From assembly GCF_044324785.1 (NCBI RefSeq), contig NZ_CP172127.1: a stretch of 64,000 nucleotides of DNA; one strand, given 5' to 3'. Origin of the DNA: Escherichia coli (lineage in GTDB: Bacteria; Pseudomonadota; Gammaproteobacteria; Enterobacterales; Enterobacteriaceae). The notes under the pieces are model-generated. The model did not search any database. It was given only the letters and a program-made list of their open reading frames with translations, and was not told where the DNA came from. Within the stretch, counting starts at the first letter, position 1. The number at the start of each line of letters is the position of its first letter. Positions 5,293 through 60,306 of this stretch are shown piece after piece. The position numbers and the translations under genes were made by a program.

Positions 5293-5732
5293 TAATCCCC
5301 CTTCAACAAGGCTTTTTTACGGGCAGCAAATAGACTTTTGGCCTCTTCATGAGAGAGCGCTGGGCGTGGATCGTCAATGGCGGCCTGCACCTGCTCTCGA
5401 AACCAGGCATCATACGCGGCAGCTTCATGAGCTCGTTTTAATGCCTCTGCCCTGTCAGGTCGGGTCGTTTTCTTCTGACCATCCGGGTCGTAATTAGAGG
5501 CGTCGACTTCAAACCGGGCAATACCAACATCTTTCAGGTAGTTGACAACCGTTTCCAGCCGTTTGAACAGGCGGATTTGCCGACTGCGTTGTGCTGCAAG
5601 AGGCCGTTCAGTGTGGCCGTATTTCACGGTCAACGACCAGCCTCCCTGGGTGCCAATAACGTGTGCTGCATCCACTACGCCAGACTCAACCAGTTTATGT
5701 AAGGTTGAGTGATCGATCGTTTCTGGTGCCAT
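5292..5732 (-). CDS. Putative antitoxin: roughly 100-aa N-terminal domain of unknown function fused to a PaaA2/ParD-like C-terminal tail
   Basis: 146-aa ORF translationally coupled to the toxin. The C-terminal AYDAWFREQVQAAIDDPRPALSHEEAKSLFAARKK resembles the PaaA2-type ParE-neutralising motif as I remember it; I do not recognise the N-terminal domain. Confidence 0.55.
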   Translation of the reverse strand: MAPETIDHSTLHKLVESGVVDAAHVIGTQGGWSLTVKYGHTERPLAAQRSRQIRLFKRLETVVNYLKDVGIARFEVDASNYDPDGQKKTTRPDRAEALKRAHEAAAYDAWFREQVQAAIDDPRPALSHEEAKSLFAARKKALLKGD

Positions 5733-21873: not shown

Positions 21874-22863
21874 TTAGCCGCCAATGTACGATAAGTTTTG
21901 CGTAATACCGGTGTTGTTTTGATGCAGGAAATGGGTCTGTTTCTTCTCCCGCAGCGCCGCTGAAATACGCGCTTCCAGCGCCTGTTGCTGGGTATCGTCT
22001 TCCAGCAGATCGCGCAGGTTAACGCCGCCTTCACCAAACAGGCAGAGATGGAGTTTACCAGTGGAGGAAACGCGCAGGCGGTTGCAAGTGGCGCAGAAGT
22101 CTTTTTCATACGGCATGATAAGGCCAATCTCTCCGGCGTAATCCGGATGACAAAAGACTTGCGCGGGACCGTCGCTGCGTTGACGTAATTGGTGGATCCA
22201 GCCGCGACGCAGTAGCTCGTCACGCAGAACCTGACCAGAGATGTGATGCTTACGGAAGAGCTCGCTGCCCTCGCCCGTTTCCATCAATTCGATGAAACGC
22301 AGCTGGATAGGGCGATGCTGGATCCAGTTCAGAAAGGTGTCGAGCTGATGATGATTAACATCACGCATCAGCACGGTATTGACTTTGACCTTCTCAAAAC
22401 CGGCCTCAAATGCAGCATCGATCCCTGCCATGACCTGGTTGAATTTATCCTGCCCGGTAATGGCATGAAACTGGCGAGCGTCAAGGCTATCAACGCTGAC
22501 GTTGATGCCAGTAAGTCCCGCATCGCGCCAGTTCGCCACATCGCGTTCCAGACGGTAACCATTGGTGGTGACCGCAATCTGGCGGATAGCGTCGTTTTCC
22601 CGCACAGCGACGATGATATCGGTAAAGTCGCGGCGTAAAGACGGCTCACCGCCTGTCAGGCGCACTTTTTCGGTGCCCAGACTGGCAAAGGCGCGCGTAA
22701 CCCGGCGAATTTCATCGACGGTAAGAAAGCCTTTATTGGTGACGCCGCTCGGTTTGTAGCCATCCGGCAGGCAGTAGGTGCAACGAAAGTTACACACATC
22801 AGTAATCGACAGGCGCAAGTAGTAAAACTTACGCGCAAATGCATCAGTCAGTTGTGAAGCCAT
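21874..22863 (-). CDS. moaA: GTP 3',8-cyclase MoaA (radical SAM)
   Basis: ORF 21874..22944 trimmed to MASQLTDAF... (329 aa); CxxxCxxC motif (CNFRCTYC). Confidence 0.95.
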
Positions 22864-22865
22864 GT

Positions 22866-23000
22866 ACACCTTTCCAGATACGGGAGGCGAAGTCATTTCT
22901 TCCTTCGCCCTGGTGGCAATCTTTACGAGCATTGTCACGGCCAAAGCACCGTATCAGTTGACCCAGGTGCAGAGGCTAGAGTGTTTAGTGGTTAAGCCGA
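22866..23000 (-). ncRNA. Moco (molybdenum cofactor) riboswitch candidate in the moaA 5' leader
   Basis: Position immediately upstream of moaA; leader contains GCCUCCC and GGAAAGG elements next to the start codon. The fold was not checked. Confidence 0.45.
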
Positions 23001-33824: not shown

Positions 33825-36086
33825 TTACATCTGACGGTTTTTATTGAAGTTAATCAAACTACCCGCCTTGATAATCTCGCGTTCTTCAGCAGTCAGACTT
33901 TCCATATAGAGCGTAATCTCTGTTACCGGCGCATCTTCATGGATCACATAACCTTTAAACGTCGTACCCGGATTATCCAGCGCCGCTTTAATGCCAGGGA
34001 TGTAAATGTAATCCCCCACTTCAAACGCTGGTGCTTCCGCCATTTGCAGCGGTAACATCCCCCAGTTGATGACGTTAGAACGGTAGCGTTTAGTCGCGTA
34101 TTCCTCGGCAATATTCGCCAGACCGCCAATCACACGCTGGCAGCTCGCCGCCTGCTCACGCGCAGAACCATCGCCTGGTTTCACCGCATAGACCATGCTG
34201 CCAATTTCAGTTTGCAGCGGATCAATATGCTCCTGACCAGCAATCTGCTTAATGCGCGCAAACACCTCTGTCAGCTCACTGACATTCCCCGCCAGACGCT
34301 GATTTTCCAGCTCAGCAGTCGCTTTACTTCTGCCAACATAACCTGGATCGCGGCGTGACAGGGTAAACTCCGCCAGACCAATCGGATTTGAACGATAAGA
34401 AGATGTTTCACCGGAAGGAATCAGTTCGTCGGTGGTGGTCACTTCGTCGAGGATCTTCGAGCACACTTTGAGGACGATATTGTCAGTCAGCGCACCCAAT
34501 TCCGGCCAGTCTTTAATGTTCGGTCCGTAAATCAGCGGTTGCTGGGTCGCCCCTTTCACAAAGCCCTGATAAACACGGTTTTTATACGGCGTTACATCGA
34601 AGGCGTACTCCGGCACGTTGTCCCAGCAATCCAGCTCGCTGGCAGAGGTTAAATAGCCACCGTTTGCCGCAGTCGCAGCGATGGAACGAGCGTCCATCAA
34701 CGCCACTGCTGACATCTGCCCATTGGCTGGCTTAGAGCCTTCGCGGTTCGGGAAGTTACGCGTGGTGTGGCGAATACTCAAACCGTTGTTGATTGGCGTA
34801 TCGCCCGCGCCGAAGCATGGGCCGCAGAACGCGGTTCTGATGATTGCGCCTGCGCCAATCAAATCTGCTACCACGCCTTTTTTGGCTAAATCCATAAACA
34901 CCGGCTGTGATGACGGGTAAACCGCCAGCGAGAAGGTGTCATTGCCACAGGATTGACCGCGCAGTGCATTCGCCGCCGCGATGACGTTTTCGTAGTTACC
35001 GCCAGAACAGCCCGCGATAATCCCCTGCTGCACTTTCAGGCGACCATTTTCCACTTTATCCAGCAGCGAGAGTTTGGCTTTACCGTGCGCCACGCGTTCG
35101 GACTCAATTTCAATCTCACGCAGAATGTCGGTCAGGTTCTGGTTCAGCGTGTCGATTTCATACACGTTGCTCGGGTGGAACGGCAGCGCAATCATTGGTT
35201 TGATGGCGCTTAAATCAACGCTGATGCAGCCATCGTAGTACGCCATCGGTTGAGGGTTAAGCTGGCAGTAATCCTGGCCGCGACCGTGCAGCGCCAGCCA
35301 GTTATGGACTTCTTCATCGGTTTGCCAGATAGAACTTAAACAGGTCGTTTCAGTGGTCATAACGTCAACGCTGTTACGGAAATCGGTAGAGAGCGCAGCA
35401 ACACCGGGACCTACGAATTCCATCACTTTGTTTTTGACGTAGCCGTTTTTGAACACGGCACCGATGATAGCCAGCGCCACATCCTGTGGCCCCACATACG
35501 GCGCAGGTTTTCCGGTCAGATGCACCGCAACAACTCCCGGATAGTCGATATCCCAGGTGTCATTAAGCAGCTGTTTTACCAACTCACCGCCACCCTCACC
35601 GACTGCCATTGTCCCTAATGCACCGTAACGGGTGTGGCTGTCTGACCCGAGGATCATTTTGCCCCCGCCTGCCATCATCTCACGCATATATTGATGGATG
35701 ACCGCAATATGCGGAGGCACAAAAATACCGCCATAACGCTGAGCTGCCGATAAACCAAAAACATGGTCATCACCGTTAATGGTGCCGCCGACGGCGCAGA
35801 GTGAGTTATGGCAGTTGGTCAGCACATACGGCAGCGGGAAACGTTCCATACCGGACGCTTTAGCGGTCTGTACAATACCAACAAAGGTAATATCGTGAGA
35901 GGCTAATGAATCAAACTTAATTTTAAGTTTATCCATATTTCCGGACGTATTATGAGAAGAGAGAATAGACCAGGCAATAGTGCCTTTTTTTGCTTCTTCT
36001 TTTTTAATTTCGCCGGTGAAATGTTCTTCGGCAATTATTTCGTTATTACTGGCGAGAAACACGCCTTTTTCAGATAACTTGATCAT
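33825..36086 (-). CDS. ybhJ: YbhJ, aconitase-family protein
   Basis: ORF 33825..36110; start trimmed to MIKLSEKG (about 753 aa). Confidence 0.88.
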
Positions 36087-36139
36087 CAAATGCTCCAGAT
36101 ATCTGCGCACCGTGAAGTGCGCAGAAAGATAATAAATGG

Positions 36140-36273
36140 ATATACTCTAAATAATTCGAGTTGCAGGAAGGCGACAAGCGAGTGAATCCCCAGGAGCTTA
36201 CATAAGTAAGTGACTGGGGTGAGCGAACGCAGACGCAGCACATGCAACTTGAAGTATGACGAGTATATTTACA
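36140..36273. repeat. ERIC (IRU) element
   Basis: Contains gtgaatccccaggagcttacat and aagtaagtgactggggtgagcg, which match the two standard ERIC primer sequences as I recall them, within an imperfect ~130-bp palindrome. Confidence 0.75.
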
Positions 36274-37702
36274 GCATGTTCCAGCCGATCAGCATATTCC
36301 ACCACCACACTCCGAGGGTGATATGCACCAGGAAGGTTAATATCGTCAGTACCGCACCGACCAACCACCAGGATTTAATATCGTTGTAACCCACGCCAAA
36401 GATGACCGGACCTGCCGCGCCGCCATAGTGAGTAACCATGCCGCCATAGGAGTTGGAGAACAACAGTGCCAGCGCGGTTAACATTAACGGTGCGCCGGAG
36501 ACGTTCGCCAGCATGGCAAATACCGGTAACATGGCAACGATATAGGCACTACCGGAAGCGAAGAAATAACGCACGATAATGCTGAGGAAAATAATAACGA
36601 AGAAAGCAACGTTACCGTGACCATCAAATGCCAGGTTATTTTTAAAGACTTCAGCTAACCATTCGAAGAATTTCACTTTCGATAATAAGGAGCTTAAGCC
36701 GATAATACCGCCGTACCAGATTAAGGTATTCCAGCCGCCTTTATTTTTAACCACGTCTTCCCAGGTAACGATACCCAGCAGCAGCATAGTCGCCATAACA
36801 ACGATTGCCACGGTGGATTCATCAACCCCCAGTGACTTACTGAAAATCCAGCCCAGTAGCGCCAGCACAAAGACACCGAGCAGCATTTTTTCGCGGATTT
36901 TCATCGGTCCCAGTTCGGCAAGGCCCGCTTTGGCGATGGTTTTGTTATCCACCTTCTTAATTTCTGGCGGATACATGGTGTAAATCACCAGCGGGGTGAC
37001 CAGCAGCATAATGATACCCGGCAATCCAGCGGCCAGCGCCCATCCACCCCAGCTAATTTGCAGGTGCAGAATGTCGTTGATCATTTTCAGCGCCAGAATG
37101 TTCCCCGCCATTGCGGTAAAGAACATATAGCTGGTGGTTTTGGTGACCATGTAAATGGACATCATCAGGTAATGTCCGACACGACGCGGACTTTTTTCCG
37201 GTTCGGACCCCAAAGCCACCGCCACACTGTTGATGATCGGTAACACAATGCCGCCCGCACGCGCGGTGTTAGACGGTGTTGCCGGAGCCAGTACCAGATC
37301 GAGGAATACCGTAACGTAACCCAGACCCAGCGTGGTGTTACCGATTTTACCAATCAGCAGATAGGCTATACGTTTGCCTAAGCCGGTGGTCACAAATGCG
37401 GCGCTTAAGGTGAACGCCGAGAACACCAGCCAGGTGGTACCTGAAGAGTAACCGCTTAATACGGCGGTGGTCTTAAACGCACCGTCGGATAAGTTACCGA
37501 CCACCACCATTGAGGCAGCAACGGCAATTAACAGTACGACAGGTTCCGGGAAAGGCTTGATAACCAGCCCCACAATGGCCGCCAGGTAAATACCAAAAAG
37601 CACCCACGCCAGTTCGCTTAATCCTGCCGGAGCTGGCATAAAGCCAATAATACATGGGATCGCTAATATCAGAATTAGCTTCCATAACGATTTTTTATTC
37701 AT
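36269..37702 (-). CDS. ybhI: YbhI, DASS-family anion transporter
   Basis: 477-aa polytopic ORF; synteny. Confidence 0.9.
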   Translation of the reverse strand: MNKKSLWKLILILAIPCIIGFMPAPAGLSELAWVLFGIYLAAIVGLVIKPFPEPVVLLIAVAASMVVVGNLSDGAFKTTAVLSGYSSGTTWLVFSAFTLSAAFVTTGLGKRIAYLLIGKIGNTTLGLGYVTVFLDLVLAPATPSNTARAGGIVLPIINSVAVALGSEPEKSPRRVGHYLMMSIYMVTKTTSYMFFTAMAGNILALKMINDILHLQISWGGWALAAGLPGIIMLLVTPLVIYTMYPPEIKKVDNKTIAKAGLAELGPMKIREKMLLGVFVLALLGWIFSKSLGVDESTVAIVVMATMLLLGIVTWEDVVKNKGGWNTLIWYGGIIGLSSLLSKVKFFEWLAEVFKNNLAFDGHGNVAFFVIIFLSIIVRYFFASGSAYIVAMLPVFAMLANVSGAPLMLTALALLFSNSYGGMVTHYGGAAGPVIFGVGYNDIKSWWLVGAVLTILTFLVHITLGVWWWNMLIGWNML

Positions 37703-57737: not shown

Positions 57738-57862
57738 TGGTGGGTCGTGCAGGATGACTCGCTTCGCTCGCCCTTCGGGCCGTCGCCGCGAGCGGCTCCG
57801 TTGTTTCGCTGCGCTCAACTCAAACCTGCTGCAGGTTCGAATCTTTGAGTATCGCAGATAGC
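57738..57862 (-). repeat. Degenerate tRNA-Lys-derived unit: 17-nt copy of the tRNA-Lys 3' end, then diverged sequence
   Basis: tggtgggtcgtgcagga is identical to the 3' end of the adjacent tRNA-Lys genes; the rest is no longer tRNA-like but keeps a T-arm-like ctgcaggttcgaatc. Confidence 0.6.
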
Positions 57863-57893
57863 AAAAAAGCGCCTTTAGGGCGCTTTTTTACAT
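57863..57893 (-). terminator. Rho-independent terminator of the lysT tRNA operon
   Basis: Hairpin gcgcctttagggcgc flanked by A/T runs, immediately 3' of the last tRNA. Confidence 0.65.
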
Positions 57894-57969
57894 TGGTGGG
57901 TCGTGCAGGATTCGAACCTGCGACCAATTGATTAAAAGTCAACTGCTCTACCAACTGAGCTAACGACCC
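57894..57969 (-). tRNA. lysQ: tRNA-Lys (UUU)
   Basis: 76-nt reverse complement matches E. coli tRNA-Lys with anticodon loop cuUUUaa and CCA end. Symbol assigned by position in the cluster. Confidence 0.93.
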
Positions 57970-58002
57970 CTTGCGGGATTATGCTGCTTTAATCATTCAG
58001 GA

Positions 58003-58078
58003 TGGTGGGTCGTGCAGGATTCGAACCTGCGACCAATTGATTAAAAGTCAACTGCTCTACCAACTGAGCTAACGACCC
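58003..58078 (-). tRNA. lysZ: tRNA-Lys (UUU)
   Basis: Identical 76-nt tRNA-Lys sequence. Confidence 0.93.
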
Positions 58079-58126
58079 ATACGGGTGTTACCTGAAAGAT
58101 TTCTACTCGGAACCAATCTTTAAAAT

Positions 58127-58224
58127 TGGTGGGTCGTGCAGGATGACTCGCTTCGCTCGCCCTACGGGCCGTTGCTGACGCAACGTTATCCTTCACGCTT
58201 AACATCTGAGTTTGATGTTAAAAT
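58127..58224 (-). repeat. Spacer unit with a 17-nt tRNA-Lys 3'-end stub and a conserved hairpin
   Basis: tggtgggtcgtgcagga followed by tgactcgcttcgctcgccctacgggccgttgctgacgcaacg... Confidence 0.6.
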
Positions 58225-58300
58225 TGGTGGGTCGTGCAGGATTCGAACCTGCGACCAATTGATTAAAAGTCAACTGCTCTACCAACTGAGCTAACGACCC
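58225..58300 (-). tRNA. lysY: tRNA-Lys (UUU)
   Basis: Identical 76-nt tRNA-Lys sequence. Confidence 0.93.
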
Positions 58301-58303
58301 GAG

Positions 58304-58379
58304 TGGTGGGTGATGACGGGATCGAACCGCCGACCCCCTCCTTGTAAGGGAGGTGCTCTCCCAGCTGAGCTAATCACCC
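58304..58379 (-). tRNA. valZ: tRNA-Val (UAC)
   Basis: Reverse complement is gggtgattagctcagctgggagagcacctcccttacaaggagggggtcggcggttcgatcccgtcatcacccacca. Confidence 0.93.
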
Positions 58380-58430
58380 GATACTGCGCTGGATACTACA
58401 AACTACTTCCACCGAACCCACCGTAATTAG

Positions 58431-58506
58431 TGGTGGGTCGTGCAGGATTCGAACCTGCGACCAATTGATTAAAAGTCAACTGCTCTACCAACTGAGCTAA
58501 CGACCC
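58431..58506 (-). tRNA. lysW: tRNA-Lys (UUU)
   Basis: Identical 76-nt tRNA-Lys sequence. Confidence 0.93.
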
Positions 58507-58508
58507 GG

Positions 58509-58584
58509 TGGTGGGTGATGACGGGATCGAACCGCCGACCCCCTCCTTGTAAGGGAGGTGCTCTCCCAGCTGAGCTAATCACCC
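58509..58584 (-). tRNA. valT: tRNA-Val (UAC)
   Basis: Identical 76-nt tRNA-Val sequence. Confidence 0.93.
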
Positions 58585-58619
58585 GATACTACGCTGGATA
58601 CTACAACTAACTATGTTAG

Positions 58620-58719
58620 TGGTGGGTCGTGCAGGATGACTCGACTTCGTCTCGCCCTTCGGGCCGTTGCTGATGCAACGTTATCCTTCACGTTTTACTA
58701 CCGCTTCCACCTTAGCGAT
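58620..58719 (-). repeat. Spacer unit with a 17-nt tRNA-Lys 3'-end stub and a conserved hairpin
   Basis: tggtgggtcgtgcagga followed by tgactcgacttcgtctcgcccttcgggccgttgctgatgcaacg...; closely similar to the unit at 58127..58224. Confidence 0.6.
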
Positions 58720-58795
58720 TGGTGGGTCGTGCAGGATTCGAACCTGCGACCAATTGATTAAAAGTCAACTGCTCTACCAACTGAGCTAACGACCC
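58720..58795 (-). tRNA. lysT: tRNA-Lys (UUU)
   Basis: Identical 76-nt tRNA-Lys sequence; first gene of the operon. Confidence 0.93.
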
Positions 58796-58959: not shown

Positions 58960-59751
58960 TTACATCGCGTTCAGACGTTTTTGCGCCTGTTTAGCGCCAT
59001 CAGTACCAGGATATTTACTGATAACCTGCTGGTATACGGCTTTCGCTTTTGCGGTGTCACCTTTGTCCTGCATGATGACGCCGACTTTAAACATCGCATC
59101 TGCAGCCTTTGGTGACTTCGGATAGTTTTTCACTACCGAAGCAAAATAGTACGCCGCATCATCTTTTTTACCCTTGTTGTAGTTTAACTGACCCAGCCAA
59201 TAATTGGCGTTTGGCAGGTAAGTTGAATCAGGGTAATTTTTGATGAAATTCTGAAATGCCACCATTGCGTCATCCTGGCGGGATTTATCCTGCACCAGCG
59301 CAATAGCTGCATTGTAATCCGTGTTTGCATCACCGCTTTTCACCGGCGCGCCAGCATTCGCAGTACCAGCATCAGCTGTCGGCGTCGTTGATGCCGCCGC
59401 ACCGCTTTGATCACCGCTGGTTGATTGCGCCGCTGCACCACCGCTGCTGAGGCTGTCGATCTGCAACAGGATCTGCTTTTGCCGCTCCACGACCTGATTC
59501 AGTTGATACTGATTTTCCTGAATCTGACCGCGCAGGGAATCAATATCGGATTGATTATCAGAGAGTTGTTGCTGGAGTTGGGTTAAAAGCTGGCTGTGAG
59601 CATTTGAAATACGCTCAAGTTGAGTGACGCGGTCTTCGACCGAGCCTGAGCCGACACTACTGATTGGTGCCTGAGCAAAAGCGGCCCAGGGGGCCGCTAT
59701 ACCAACCAGTAACGACAGACTCAATAGTTGATGTCTGAAGTTACTGCTCAT
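58960..59751 (-). CDS. cpoB: Cell division coordinator CpoB (YbgF), TPR-repeat periplasmic protein
   Basis: 263-aa ORF with signal peptide, coiled coil and TPR repeats, downstream of pal. Confidence 0.93.
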   Translation of the reverse strand: MSSNFRHQLLSLSLLVGIAAPWAAFAQAPISSVGSGSVEDRVTQLERISNAHSQLLTQLQQQLSDNQSDIDSLRGQIQENQYQLNQVVERQKQILLQIDSLSSGGAAAQSTSGDQSGAAASTTPTADAGTANAGAPVKSGDANTDYNAAIALVQDKSRQDDAMVAFQNFIKNYPDSTYLPNANYWLGQLNYNKGKKDDAAYYFASVVKNYPKSPKAADAMFKVGVIMQDKGDTAKAKAVYQQVISKYPGTDGAKQAQKRLNAM

Positions 59752-59760
59752 GCAATTCTC

Positions 59761-60306
<546 letters not shown>

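Follow-up and report, generated by a model that had tools for sequence, protein, structure and literature searches.

The genes ybhI and ybhJ lie side by side on the minus strand of the E. coli chromosome in the 64-kb window, that is, the whole stretch of DNA analysed here, and they are separated by a spacer of 182 nt (Table 1). A published study treats ybhHI as a conserved cluster that is controlled by the divergently placed regulator YbhD, and names the adjacent ybhJ separately (PMC9068703). In the K-12 reference record, where the ybhI–ybhJ spacer spans 803321-803502, no repeat feature is annotated in it.

Table 1. Features of the ybhI–ybhJ spacer and of the genes on either side of it (positions in the window)
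Feature	Position	Strand	Remarks	Basis
ybhJ	33825..36086	-	downstream gene; aconitase-family hydratase; ATG at 36086-36084	753-aa annotated start in K-12
ybhJ Shine-Dalgarno GGAG	36094-36097	-
Small perfect 9-bp hairpin	36102..36125	-	between ERIC element and ybhJ ribosome-binding site	inverted-repeat search
Terminal inverted repeat arm, ybhJ side	36140..36165	.	26 nt, 81% complementary to 36243-36268; 3' arm in mRNA sense
ERIC / IRU / RU-1 element	36141..36267	+	127 bp including TA at each end	gap-free consensus alignments; ends from empty-site alleles
TA, ybhJ side	36141..36142	.	one copy of duplicated target dinucleotide	empty versus occupied comparison
AAUUA	36152..36156	-	RNase E-like motif RAUUW, putative role; 3' arm in mRNA sense	motif scan
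Conserved ERIC core	36182..36225	+	44 bp, both primer sites adjacent	exact matches
Central hairpin	36188..36219	.	14-nt arms, 4-nt loop	inverted repeats and folding
Terminal inverted repeat arm, ybhI side	36243..36268	.	5' arm in mRNA sense; starts 2 nt after the stop
TA, ybhI side	36266..36267	.	other copy of duplicated target dinucleotide	empty versus occupied comparison
ybhI stop codon TAA	36269..36271	-	context, outside the ERIC element
ybhI	36269..37702	-	upstream gene; anion permease / putative tricarboxylate transporter	ORF

Between the two genes lies a full-length, 127-bp copy of ERIC (also called IRU or RU-1), a small non-coding mobile element. An ERIC element had been proposed here in the initial annotation, and the primer sites, the full-length alignment and the inverted repeats all bear this out. 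Both of the standard primer motifs reported there are exact: the reverse complement of ERIC1R (GTGAATCCCCAGGAGCTTACAT) stands at 36182-36203 and ERIC2 (AAGTAAGTGACTGGGGTGAGCG) follows immediately at 36204-36225, the primer sequences agreeing with those printed in PMC3696847. Each site is found a single time in the window even when three mismatches are allowed (0.00 expected in shuffles); hence, by primer-site search, the 64 kb hold one ERIC copy only. The consensus orientation, taken as the sense of the ERIC2 primer, is that of the plus strand, and a ybhI-ybhJ mRNA would carry the reverse complement.

Alignment to the ERIC consensus, which had been put forward as the check on this identification, is gap-free over the entire length, with 113 of 127 positions identical to the published E. 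coli consensus and 119 of 127 identical to the Salmonella reference copy SeRU-1, the best of 1000 shuffled controls reaching 79; the poor alignment that would speak against ERIC is not what is seen. Both references, the former being the 127-nt consensus of Wilson & Sharp, were taken from Table 1a of Delihas 2007 (PMC2759123). Because the consensus alignment holds from end to end, the ybhI–ybhJ copy is a full-length one. An independent consensus was derived by scanning metagenome contigs with a 20-nt core pattern; 76 different flank contexts were recovered, along with 53 full-length sites. The resulting sequence (approximately 50 independent sites) is again 127 bp long, runs from TATAC to GTATA and aligns with the ybhI copy end to end. 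The latter departs from this broad consensus at about 12-14 positions, which are common to other E. coli-type copies such as that between cusF and cusC, and this comparison places it in a nearly uniform ERIC subfamily of the E. coli type.

Such elements are present in multiple dispersed copies in an E. coli genome, with a median of 5 and a maximum of 11 places detectable by megablast. A scan of viral contigs for independent ERIC copies was uninformative, all five of its matches being this same ybhI–ybhJ locus. At gathering thresholds, an Rfam scan of the whole window returned nothing in the ybhI–ybhJ spacer; the best scores below threshold were those of V_AS5 (Vibrio AS5; 46.9 bits against a threshold of 96) and of the Salmonella family isrH (17.5 bits), and both probably reflect ERIC-derived segments inside those families. 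In line with a MITE, what distinguishes the occupied from the empty allele is the element together with one TA, and 127 bp are too short to encode a transposase.

The boundaries of the element are given by alleles that do not carry it. The clean empty site, CTGTAAATATCC, reads CTG TAA A TA TCC; with the element in place, the sequence is CTG TAA A TA-TACTC...GAGTA-TA TCC. The insertion took place at a TA one base downstream of the ybhI TAA and added 125 bp, composed of a 123-bp body and one duplicated TA, so lengthening the spacer between the ybhI stop and the ybhJ ATG from 57 nt in the empty allele to 182 nt in the occupied one. TA termini and duplication of a TA target are properties of the ERIC family (PMC2759123, PMC3184786). 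The extent first given as 36140-36273 is accordingly corrected to 36141-36267.

With these ends, the overlap with the ybhI stop codon claimed in the initial annotation disappears. The element ends at 36267 and the TAA occupies 36269-36271; the single base 36268 separates them, and the first base of the element in the direction of transcription lies 2 nt past the stop. In the string formerly quoted as the right end of the element, gagtatatttaca, only gagtata belongs to it, the last six bases being the spacer base 36268, the minus-strand TAA and part of the final Leu codon, and these six bases are unchanged in genomes without the element. The same TAA is kept in element-free genomes, namely E. 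coli GF4-3, two divergent Escherichia lineages and Citrobacter, and the YbhI C-terminus reads ...GWNML* with or without the element in the Escherichia genomes and in several Citrobacter. Since TAA already stands in the empty-site alleles, the ybhI stop codon predates the insertion. The insertion changed neither the ybhI stop codon nor the YbhI protein, and both the stop-codon overlap and an altered C-terminus are rejected, other genera having the same TAA as well. Thus, of the two differences for which strains lacking the copy were to be checked, a different C-terminus is not seen and a different 3' UTR, or spacer, is.

The imperfect palindrome of about 130 bp described at the outset is real and consists of the two 26-nt terminal arms, 81% complementary to each other, together with the central hairpin. 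In the mRNA sense the predicted fold has an energy of -45 kcal/mol (z -6.3 against shuffles), and in the other strand of -57.4 kcal/mol (z -9.7). The same hairpin is predicted for the element alone and inside the whole spacer (about -43 to -45 kcal/mol; z -5 to -6.3). Both the small 9-bp hairpin (36125-36102) and the region of the ybhJ Shine-Dalgarno remain outside this fold. The small hairpin predates the ERIC insertion, being found in empty-site alleles too, and compensatory changes in it are seen in Citrobacter. The RNase E-like motif RAUUW occurs once in the spacer, as AAUUA at 36156-36152. A long-range interaction, in which the ybhJ ribosome-binding site would base-pair with the final codons of ybhI, was considered as well and dropped, as it is not conserved in E. 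albertii.

Occupancy of the site was surveyed in 5426 complete E. coli genomes with a 231-bp query built so that the flanks alone or an ERIC alone fall below 80% coverage. The occupied locus is present in 5331 of the 5426. The ybhI 3' end is itself retained in only 5333-5336 of these genomes, about 90 being without the locus, and the element therefore stands in 5331 of the approximately 5333 that could carry it. In the sole locus-less genome examined, RM14721, ybhH-ybhI were removed by an IS1-associated deletion, which left the element and ybhJ in place and is unrelated to the element. A second, 42-nt junction query, which cannot be seeded by occupied genomes, recovered exactly one empty-site E. 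coli, strain GF4-3; the other empty-site junctions sought in E. coli, with the common CCATTT flank or of the L004 remnant type (see below), had no match in complete genomes. GF4-3 is a genuine E. coli, its ybhI being 98.1% identical to that of the window, and it shares three SNPs next to the junction with a divergent Escherichia lineage, L003. Its empty allele probably arose either by short-tract recombination, an origin to which the SNPs in common with L003 point, or by deletion between the flanking ATAT direct repeats. GF4-3, a natural E. coli, does without the element; in strain GF3-3, which has the same host source, the site is occupied.

Orthologous loci from other species were collected with the YbhI protein as query. 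The same site is occupied, in the same orientation, in E69 (another E. coli lineage), in E. albertii and in E. whittamii. The element is absent from two divergent Escherichia genomes, L003 and L004, and from Citrobacter, Klebsiella and others; Klebsiella indica has only a 22-nt ERIC-end fragment, at a different position downstream of its own ybhI. The identity of ybhI to the window is 94.7-94.8% in E69 and E. whittamii, 93.7% in L003, 92.1% in L004 and 89.4% in E. albertii, and the element-free lineages are therefore nested among element-bearing ones. In L004 the site reads CTGTAATTATTTAAAAATATCC, of which AATTATTTA matches the subterminal part of the ybhJ-side arm and looks like a remnant of the element end after an internal deletion. 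The simplest history has a single old insertion that predates the divergence of E. coli from E. albertii; the element was then probably lost on two occasions, one of which would have left the remnant. Given its near-universal presence in E. coli and its occurrence also in E. albertii and E. whittamii, the insertion is old and effectively fixed.

The sequence of the element has changed far less than its surroundings. All 127 bases are identical in the window, E69 and E. albertii; the E. whittamii copy (124/127) differs by a single patch of 3 bases, through which the central hairpin becomes perfect, and the K-12 copy (126/127) by a variant that breaks a terminal pair. Between the window and E. 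albertii, ybhI and ybhJ differ at 9.0% of all sites and at 23.2% of third codon positions, so that the probability of finding 0 differences in 127 is 7e-6 at the former rate and 3e-15 at the latter. SNPs specific to E. albertii are found close to the element, at about 20 nt on its upstream side and at 30-60 nt on its downstream side, and any recently transferred tract would therefore have to be very short. Neutral concerted evolution homogenises the copies within a species and does not slow divergence between species; for this reason, the identity across species between diverged flanks suggests that the whole element sequence is under constraint. Strong sequence conservation is, however, a long-noted trait of ERICs in general. 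At the cusF–cusC site the copy is identical at 126 of 126 positions, and 0-4 differences are counted in several further copies of the E. coli type. As the conservation is common to other copies and not specific to this locus, it may reflect a process acting on the whole family and not a function in ybhI-ybhJ. Variants within E. coli do not support selection for structure. One candidate compensatory pair among them (the haplotype C36179T + G36232A) was rejected, since the two positions do not pair together.

As to the transcript, a consensus scan of the spacer from 36087 to 36268 found neither a sigma-70-like promoter nor an intrinsic-terminator-like site, and the stem of the predicted hairpin is A/U-rich at its base, not the G+C-rich stem followed by a U run that defines an intrinsic terminator. 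With no such signal in the spacer, transcription probably runs on from ybhI into ybhJ, and the element probably forms part of a ybh(H)IJ message, in its reverse-complement orientation. In this regard, ERICs of Yersinia are co-transcribed with the flanking genes and destabilise upstream transcripts, and the model proposed for them invokes an RNase E site that is exposed in a ribosome-dependent manner and for which orientation matters (PMC2229807, PMC10969869, PMC3184786). An analogous course of events can be pictured for ybhI–ybhJ. The transcript would carry a hairpin of approximately 127 nt, its base 2 nt after the ybhI stop, which would act both as a barrier and as a processing point, so that the ybhI segment and the ybhJ segment could differ in amount. 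On reaching the ybhI TAA, a terminating ribosome would occlude and unfold the 5' arm and thereby set the 3' arm free; RNase E could then reach the single AAUUA in that arm, and cleavage at this motif would yield a ybhJ segment beginning just upstream of the older small hairpin, which would stand at its 5' end.

A cis effect on the processing of the ybhI–ybhJ mRNA fits this anatomy and would be the most likely consequence of the insertion; the possible effect on ybhI 3'-end processing put forward in the initial annotation is likewise compatible with it and a reasonable suggestion. Taken together, our findings lead us to favour, on balance and with some reserve, the view that an old and fixed ERIC insertion is co-transcribed as a hairpin, acts in cis on the mRNA and is constrained in sequence. 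A stronger form of this proposal, in which the element would have been domesticated as an intercistronic RNA element under strong purifying selection, setting the YbhI:YbhJ ratio through translation-dependent exposure to RNase E while the hairpin at 36102-36125 protects the ybhJ message, appears unlikely to us. As for orientation, the one with the RNase E site in the right-hand arm was reportedly named 'B' in the Yersinia work. In our independent metagenome sites, no clear orientation preference was found for ERICs within 10 nt of a stop codon (7 versus 5); within 20 nt the counts are 13 versus 6, if anything in favour of the orientation opposite to that of the ybhI type.

The only serious rival to a constrained element acting on the mRNA is a neutral relic, and we hold it to be a real possibility, if not a probable one. 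Here the ERIC insertion would be genuine and devoid of any locus-specific function, a self-folding palindrome that disturbs nothing in the spacer, and its identity across species would come from conversion between copies or from short-tract interspecies recombination. The near-identity of the cusF–cusC and other E. coli-type copies agrees with this, as does the 3-base patch of E. whittamii, which copies one arm of the central hairpin onto the other in a conversion-like manner; the GF4-3 allele, lacking the element and sharing junction SNPs with a divergent lineage, indicates that short-tract allele exchange occurs at this place; the element was lost in two Escherichia lineages, and no compensatory changes are seen in it. 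On the other hand, concerted evolution would leave between-species divergence unslowed, yet 127 of 127 bases are preserved against a 23% divergence at third positions, the E. albertii SNPs close by would demand a very short transferred tract, and near-fixation in E. coli (5331 of ~5333) also speaks against a relic.

It is improbable, in our judgement, that the element works at the level of transcription instead, the hairpin and the U-rich UCCAUUUAUUAUCUUUCU forming a partial terminator or pause that lowers ybhJ relative to ybhI and leaves ybhHI and ybhJ semi-independent. A stable hairpin is indeed predicted, a U-rich tract does follow it, and the published ybhHI cluster, with ybhJ named apart (PMC9068703), would suit such an arrangement. 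Nevertheless, no terminator-like site emerged from the consensus scan, and the stem differs from those of intrinsic terminators in being A/U-rich at its base (UAUACUC/GAGUAUA) and interrupted by internal loops. The U-rich tract was not brought by the element, because the empty-site alleles have it too, and no promoter-like site was found for ybhJ, as efficient termination would require.

A different history, in which the same TA was entered independently in E. coli, E. albertii and E. whittamii as a hot spot and the element-free state is ancestral, would account for identical, young-looking copies in lineages with diverged flanks. It agrees with the existence of a clean empty site, with the frequent location of ERICs within a few bases of stop codons and with the ERIC-end fragment found at another position downstream of ybhI in Klebsiella indica. 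We nonetheless regard recurrent insertion as very unlikely: the same TA, orientation and subfamily would be needed three or more times, the apparent remnant in L004 implies loss and not primary absence, and deletion between the flanking 4-bp ATAT direct repeats explains the empty site equally well. Moreover, we know of no transposase and of no ongoing mobility for ERIC in E. coli.

Finally, a coding role, in which read-through or a small ORF would couple translation into ybhJ, since the frame after the ybhI TAA stays open for 60 codons through the element to a TGA overlapping the ybhJ ATG (TGATG at 36088-36084) and the reverse complement of ERIC is known to have an open frame that is sometimes fused to genes (PMC2759123), has next to no chance of being correct, given that the open frame is intrinsic to ERIC in this orientation and the other 18 codons would be open by chance in ~40% of cases, that no Shine-Dalgarno or ATG lies in frame inside the element, that TAA followed by A is a strong stop context, and that the frame relation differs in the empty allele and is thus not conserved.

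Both the family of this element and the kind of place in which it lies were already known, and apart from its unusually strong conservation it is a plain member of ERIC. As such, the result tidies the annotation of one E. coli spacer and corrects the notion of an element touching the ybhI coding sequence, which matters little. Of wider use, an orthologous copy that is identical across species between diverged flanks offers a clean and quantified example of the long-noted conservation of ERIC, for which our literature search found no relevant published explanation. In addition, the occupied allele of nearly all E. coli and the empty one of GF4-3 form a natural pair that would be well suited to study how a stop-proximal ERIC affects the relative expression of two genes. 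To our knowledge, such an effect on co-transcribed genes has so far been demonstrated only in Yersinia.

Among known systems, the closest is the ERIC / IRU / RU-1 family of Enterobacteriaceae itself, reportedly described by Sharples & Lloyd in 1990 and by Hulton et al. in 1991, with an E. coli survey by Wilson & Sharp in 2006. The ybhI–ybhJ copy matches it in the 127-bp length, the 44-bp core, the inverted repeats and the TA ends with their duplication, and also in its dispersed multi-copy distribution, its intergenic position at a gene end and the long hairpin predicted for its RNA; there is no difference in kind. With regard to function, De Gregorio et al. are said to have found in 2005 that stop-proximal ERICs of Yersinia enterocolitica lower the upstream transcript by way of an RNase E site whose exposure depends on ribosomes. 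The ybhI–ybhJ copy resembles these in following directly after a stop codon between co-oriented genes and in having a hairpin with an RNase E-like AAUUA in the 3' arm. By contrast, our non-Yersinia sample of ERICs near stops is without orientation bias.

More distant parallels are found in the Correia/NEMIS elements of Neisseria, which are cleaved by RNase III, and in the pneumococcal RUP and BOX, all of them MITEs acting on co-transcribed mRNAs (PMC2229807, PMC10969869). They too are small, non-autonomous palindromic insertions that end in TA, are transcribed as part of operons and form long hairpins, but their sequences are unrelated and the nucleases and hosts are others. The REP/BIME sequences of E. 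coli, such as that of malE-malF, are likewise intercistronic repeats able to set the relative stability of mRNA segments. REPs, however, are G+C-rich palindromes of ~35 bp, often clustered and of RAYT transposase origin, whereas the ybhI–ybhJ spacer holds a single 127-bp ERIC.

The small hairpin that precedes ybhJ is found in all Escherichia, whether or not the ERIC element is present in the ybhI-ybhJ spacer, and it holds the same position in the comparison loci L003-L006 and L019. At this position Citrobacter youngae carries CUGUGCUC-n6-GAGCACAG, a sequence that differs from that of Escherichia and still pairs, indicating that pairing has been preserved despite changes on both sides. Two-sided change with pairing kept is seen at least once for 8 of the 9 predicted pairs. 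The ybhJ message may carry this hairpin as a conserved stem-loop at its 5' end. Its coordinates are collected below, together with the features of the window that match Rfam families.

Structured RNA features of the window
Feature	Window position	Strand	Remark
Perfect 9-bp hairpin, UCUGCGCAC-n6-GUGCGCAGA	36102-36125	minus	4 nt upstream of ybhJ Shine-Dalgarno
Molybdenum cofactor riboswitch	22851-22995	minus	Rfam match at gathering level
Seven tRNA genes (cluster) and three RtT repeats	57738-58795	minus	Rfam match at gathering level
cpoB/ybgF thermometer	59722-59860	minus	Rfam match at gathering level

Pairing was also predicted on the minus strand between the last ybhI codons (AUGCUG, 36272-36277) and the ribosome-binding region of ybhJ (…GGAGCAU, 36089-36097). 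Because ERIC folds on itself, the same pairing is predicted in the occupied allele, where the element lies in the spacer, and in the empty allele, which lacks it (likewise in locus L054). In E. albertii (GGAGUUUUUG) the pairing is lost, and it is therefore probably not meaningful.

With respect to the reading frame, that of ybhI remains open after the TAA for 60 codons across the entire ERIC (window 36086-36268, minus strand) and closes with a TGA at 36088-36086, which shares bases with the ybhJ ATG (TGATG). The two genes lie in one frame in the empty allele, being separated by the TAA and 19 sense codons.

In two E. coli strains ybhI is altered: (i) CP52E (L001) has an in-frame 18-nt deletion at the ybhI 3' end, equivalent to approximately window 36277-36300, which falls between direct repeats TGGAAYATGCTG and costs YbhI six codons of its repeated C-terminal motif (...WWNMLIGWNML*), and (ii) RM14721 (L180) carries IS1 in place of ybhH and most of ybhI, so that what is left of the region is the final 52 nt of ybhI together with the spacer and ybhJ.

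E. coli strain H2 has an ERIC copy between cusF and cusC (L053:2501-2626) that is identical to the ybhI-ybhJ copy at 126 of 126 positions; the left flank of the cusF-cusC copy is CA, not TA. Compared to the E. coli copy, that of E. whittamii (L018:4436-4562) differs by only three bases (GCTCC to GTGAC), a change that renders the central hairpin of the element a perfect palindrome and looks like the copying of one hairpin arm onto the other. Klebsiella indica (L015:4453-4474) has a 22-nt fragment with 21 bases identical to the ERIC end (ATACCCGTCATATTTCAAGTTG). This fragment is in the same orientation, 19 nt past the ybhI stop of that species, and is followed by sequence that is not ERIC.

Among metagenome contigs, L127, L155, L170, L175 and L089 have an ERIC whose left flank belongs to one known site and whose right flank belongs to a different one, the joined flanks including that of ybhI or ybhJ. 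Either these contigs were assembled as chimeras across the repeat, or they reflect real recombination between copies.

Rfam contains no ERIC family. Below threshold, window 36131-36269 matches Vibrio RNA AS5 at 46.9 bits (gathering 96) and Salmonella isrH at 17.5 bits, which suggests that both families contain ERIC-derived sequence. In other metagenome contigs (L073, L093, L117, L132 and L147, among others), alignment to ERIC is confined to the central core, and shared extra sequence interrupts the arms (e.g., GACAAATTCGTCGGGAACGAAT and GGGATGAGCCGA). Such interrupted arms fit the variants with internal insertions that have been described in the ERIC family.
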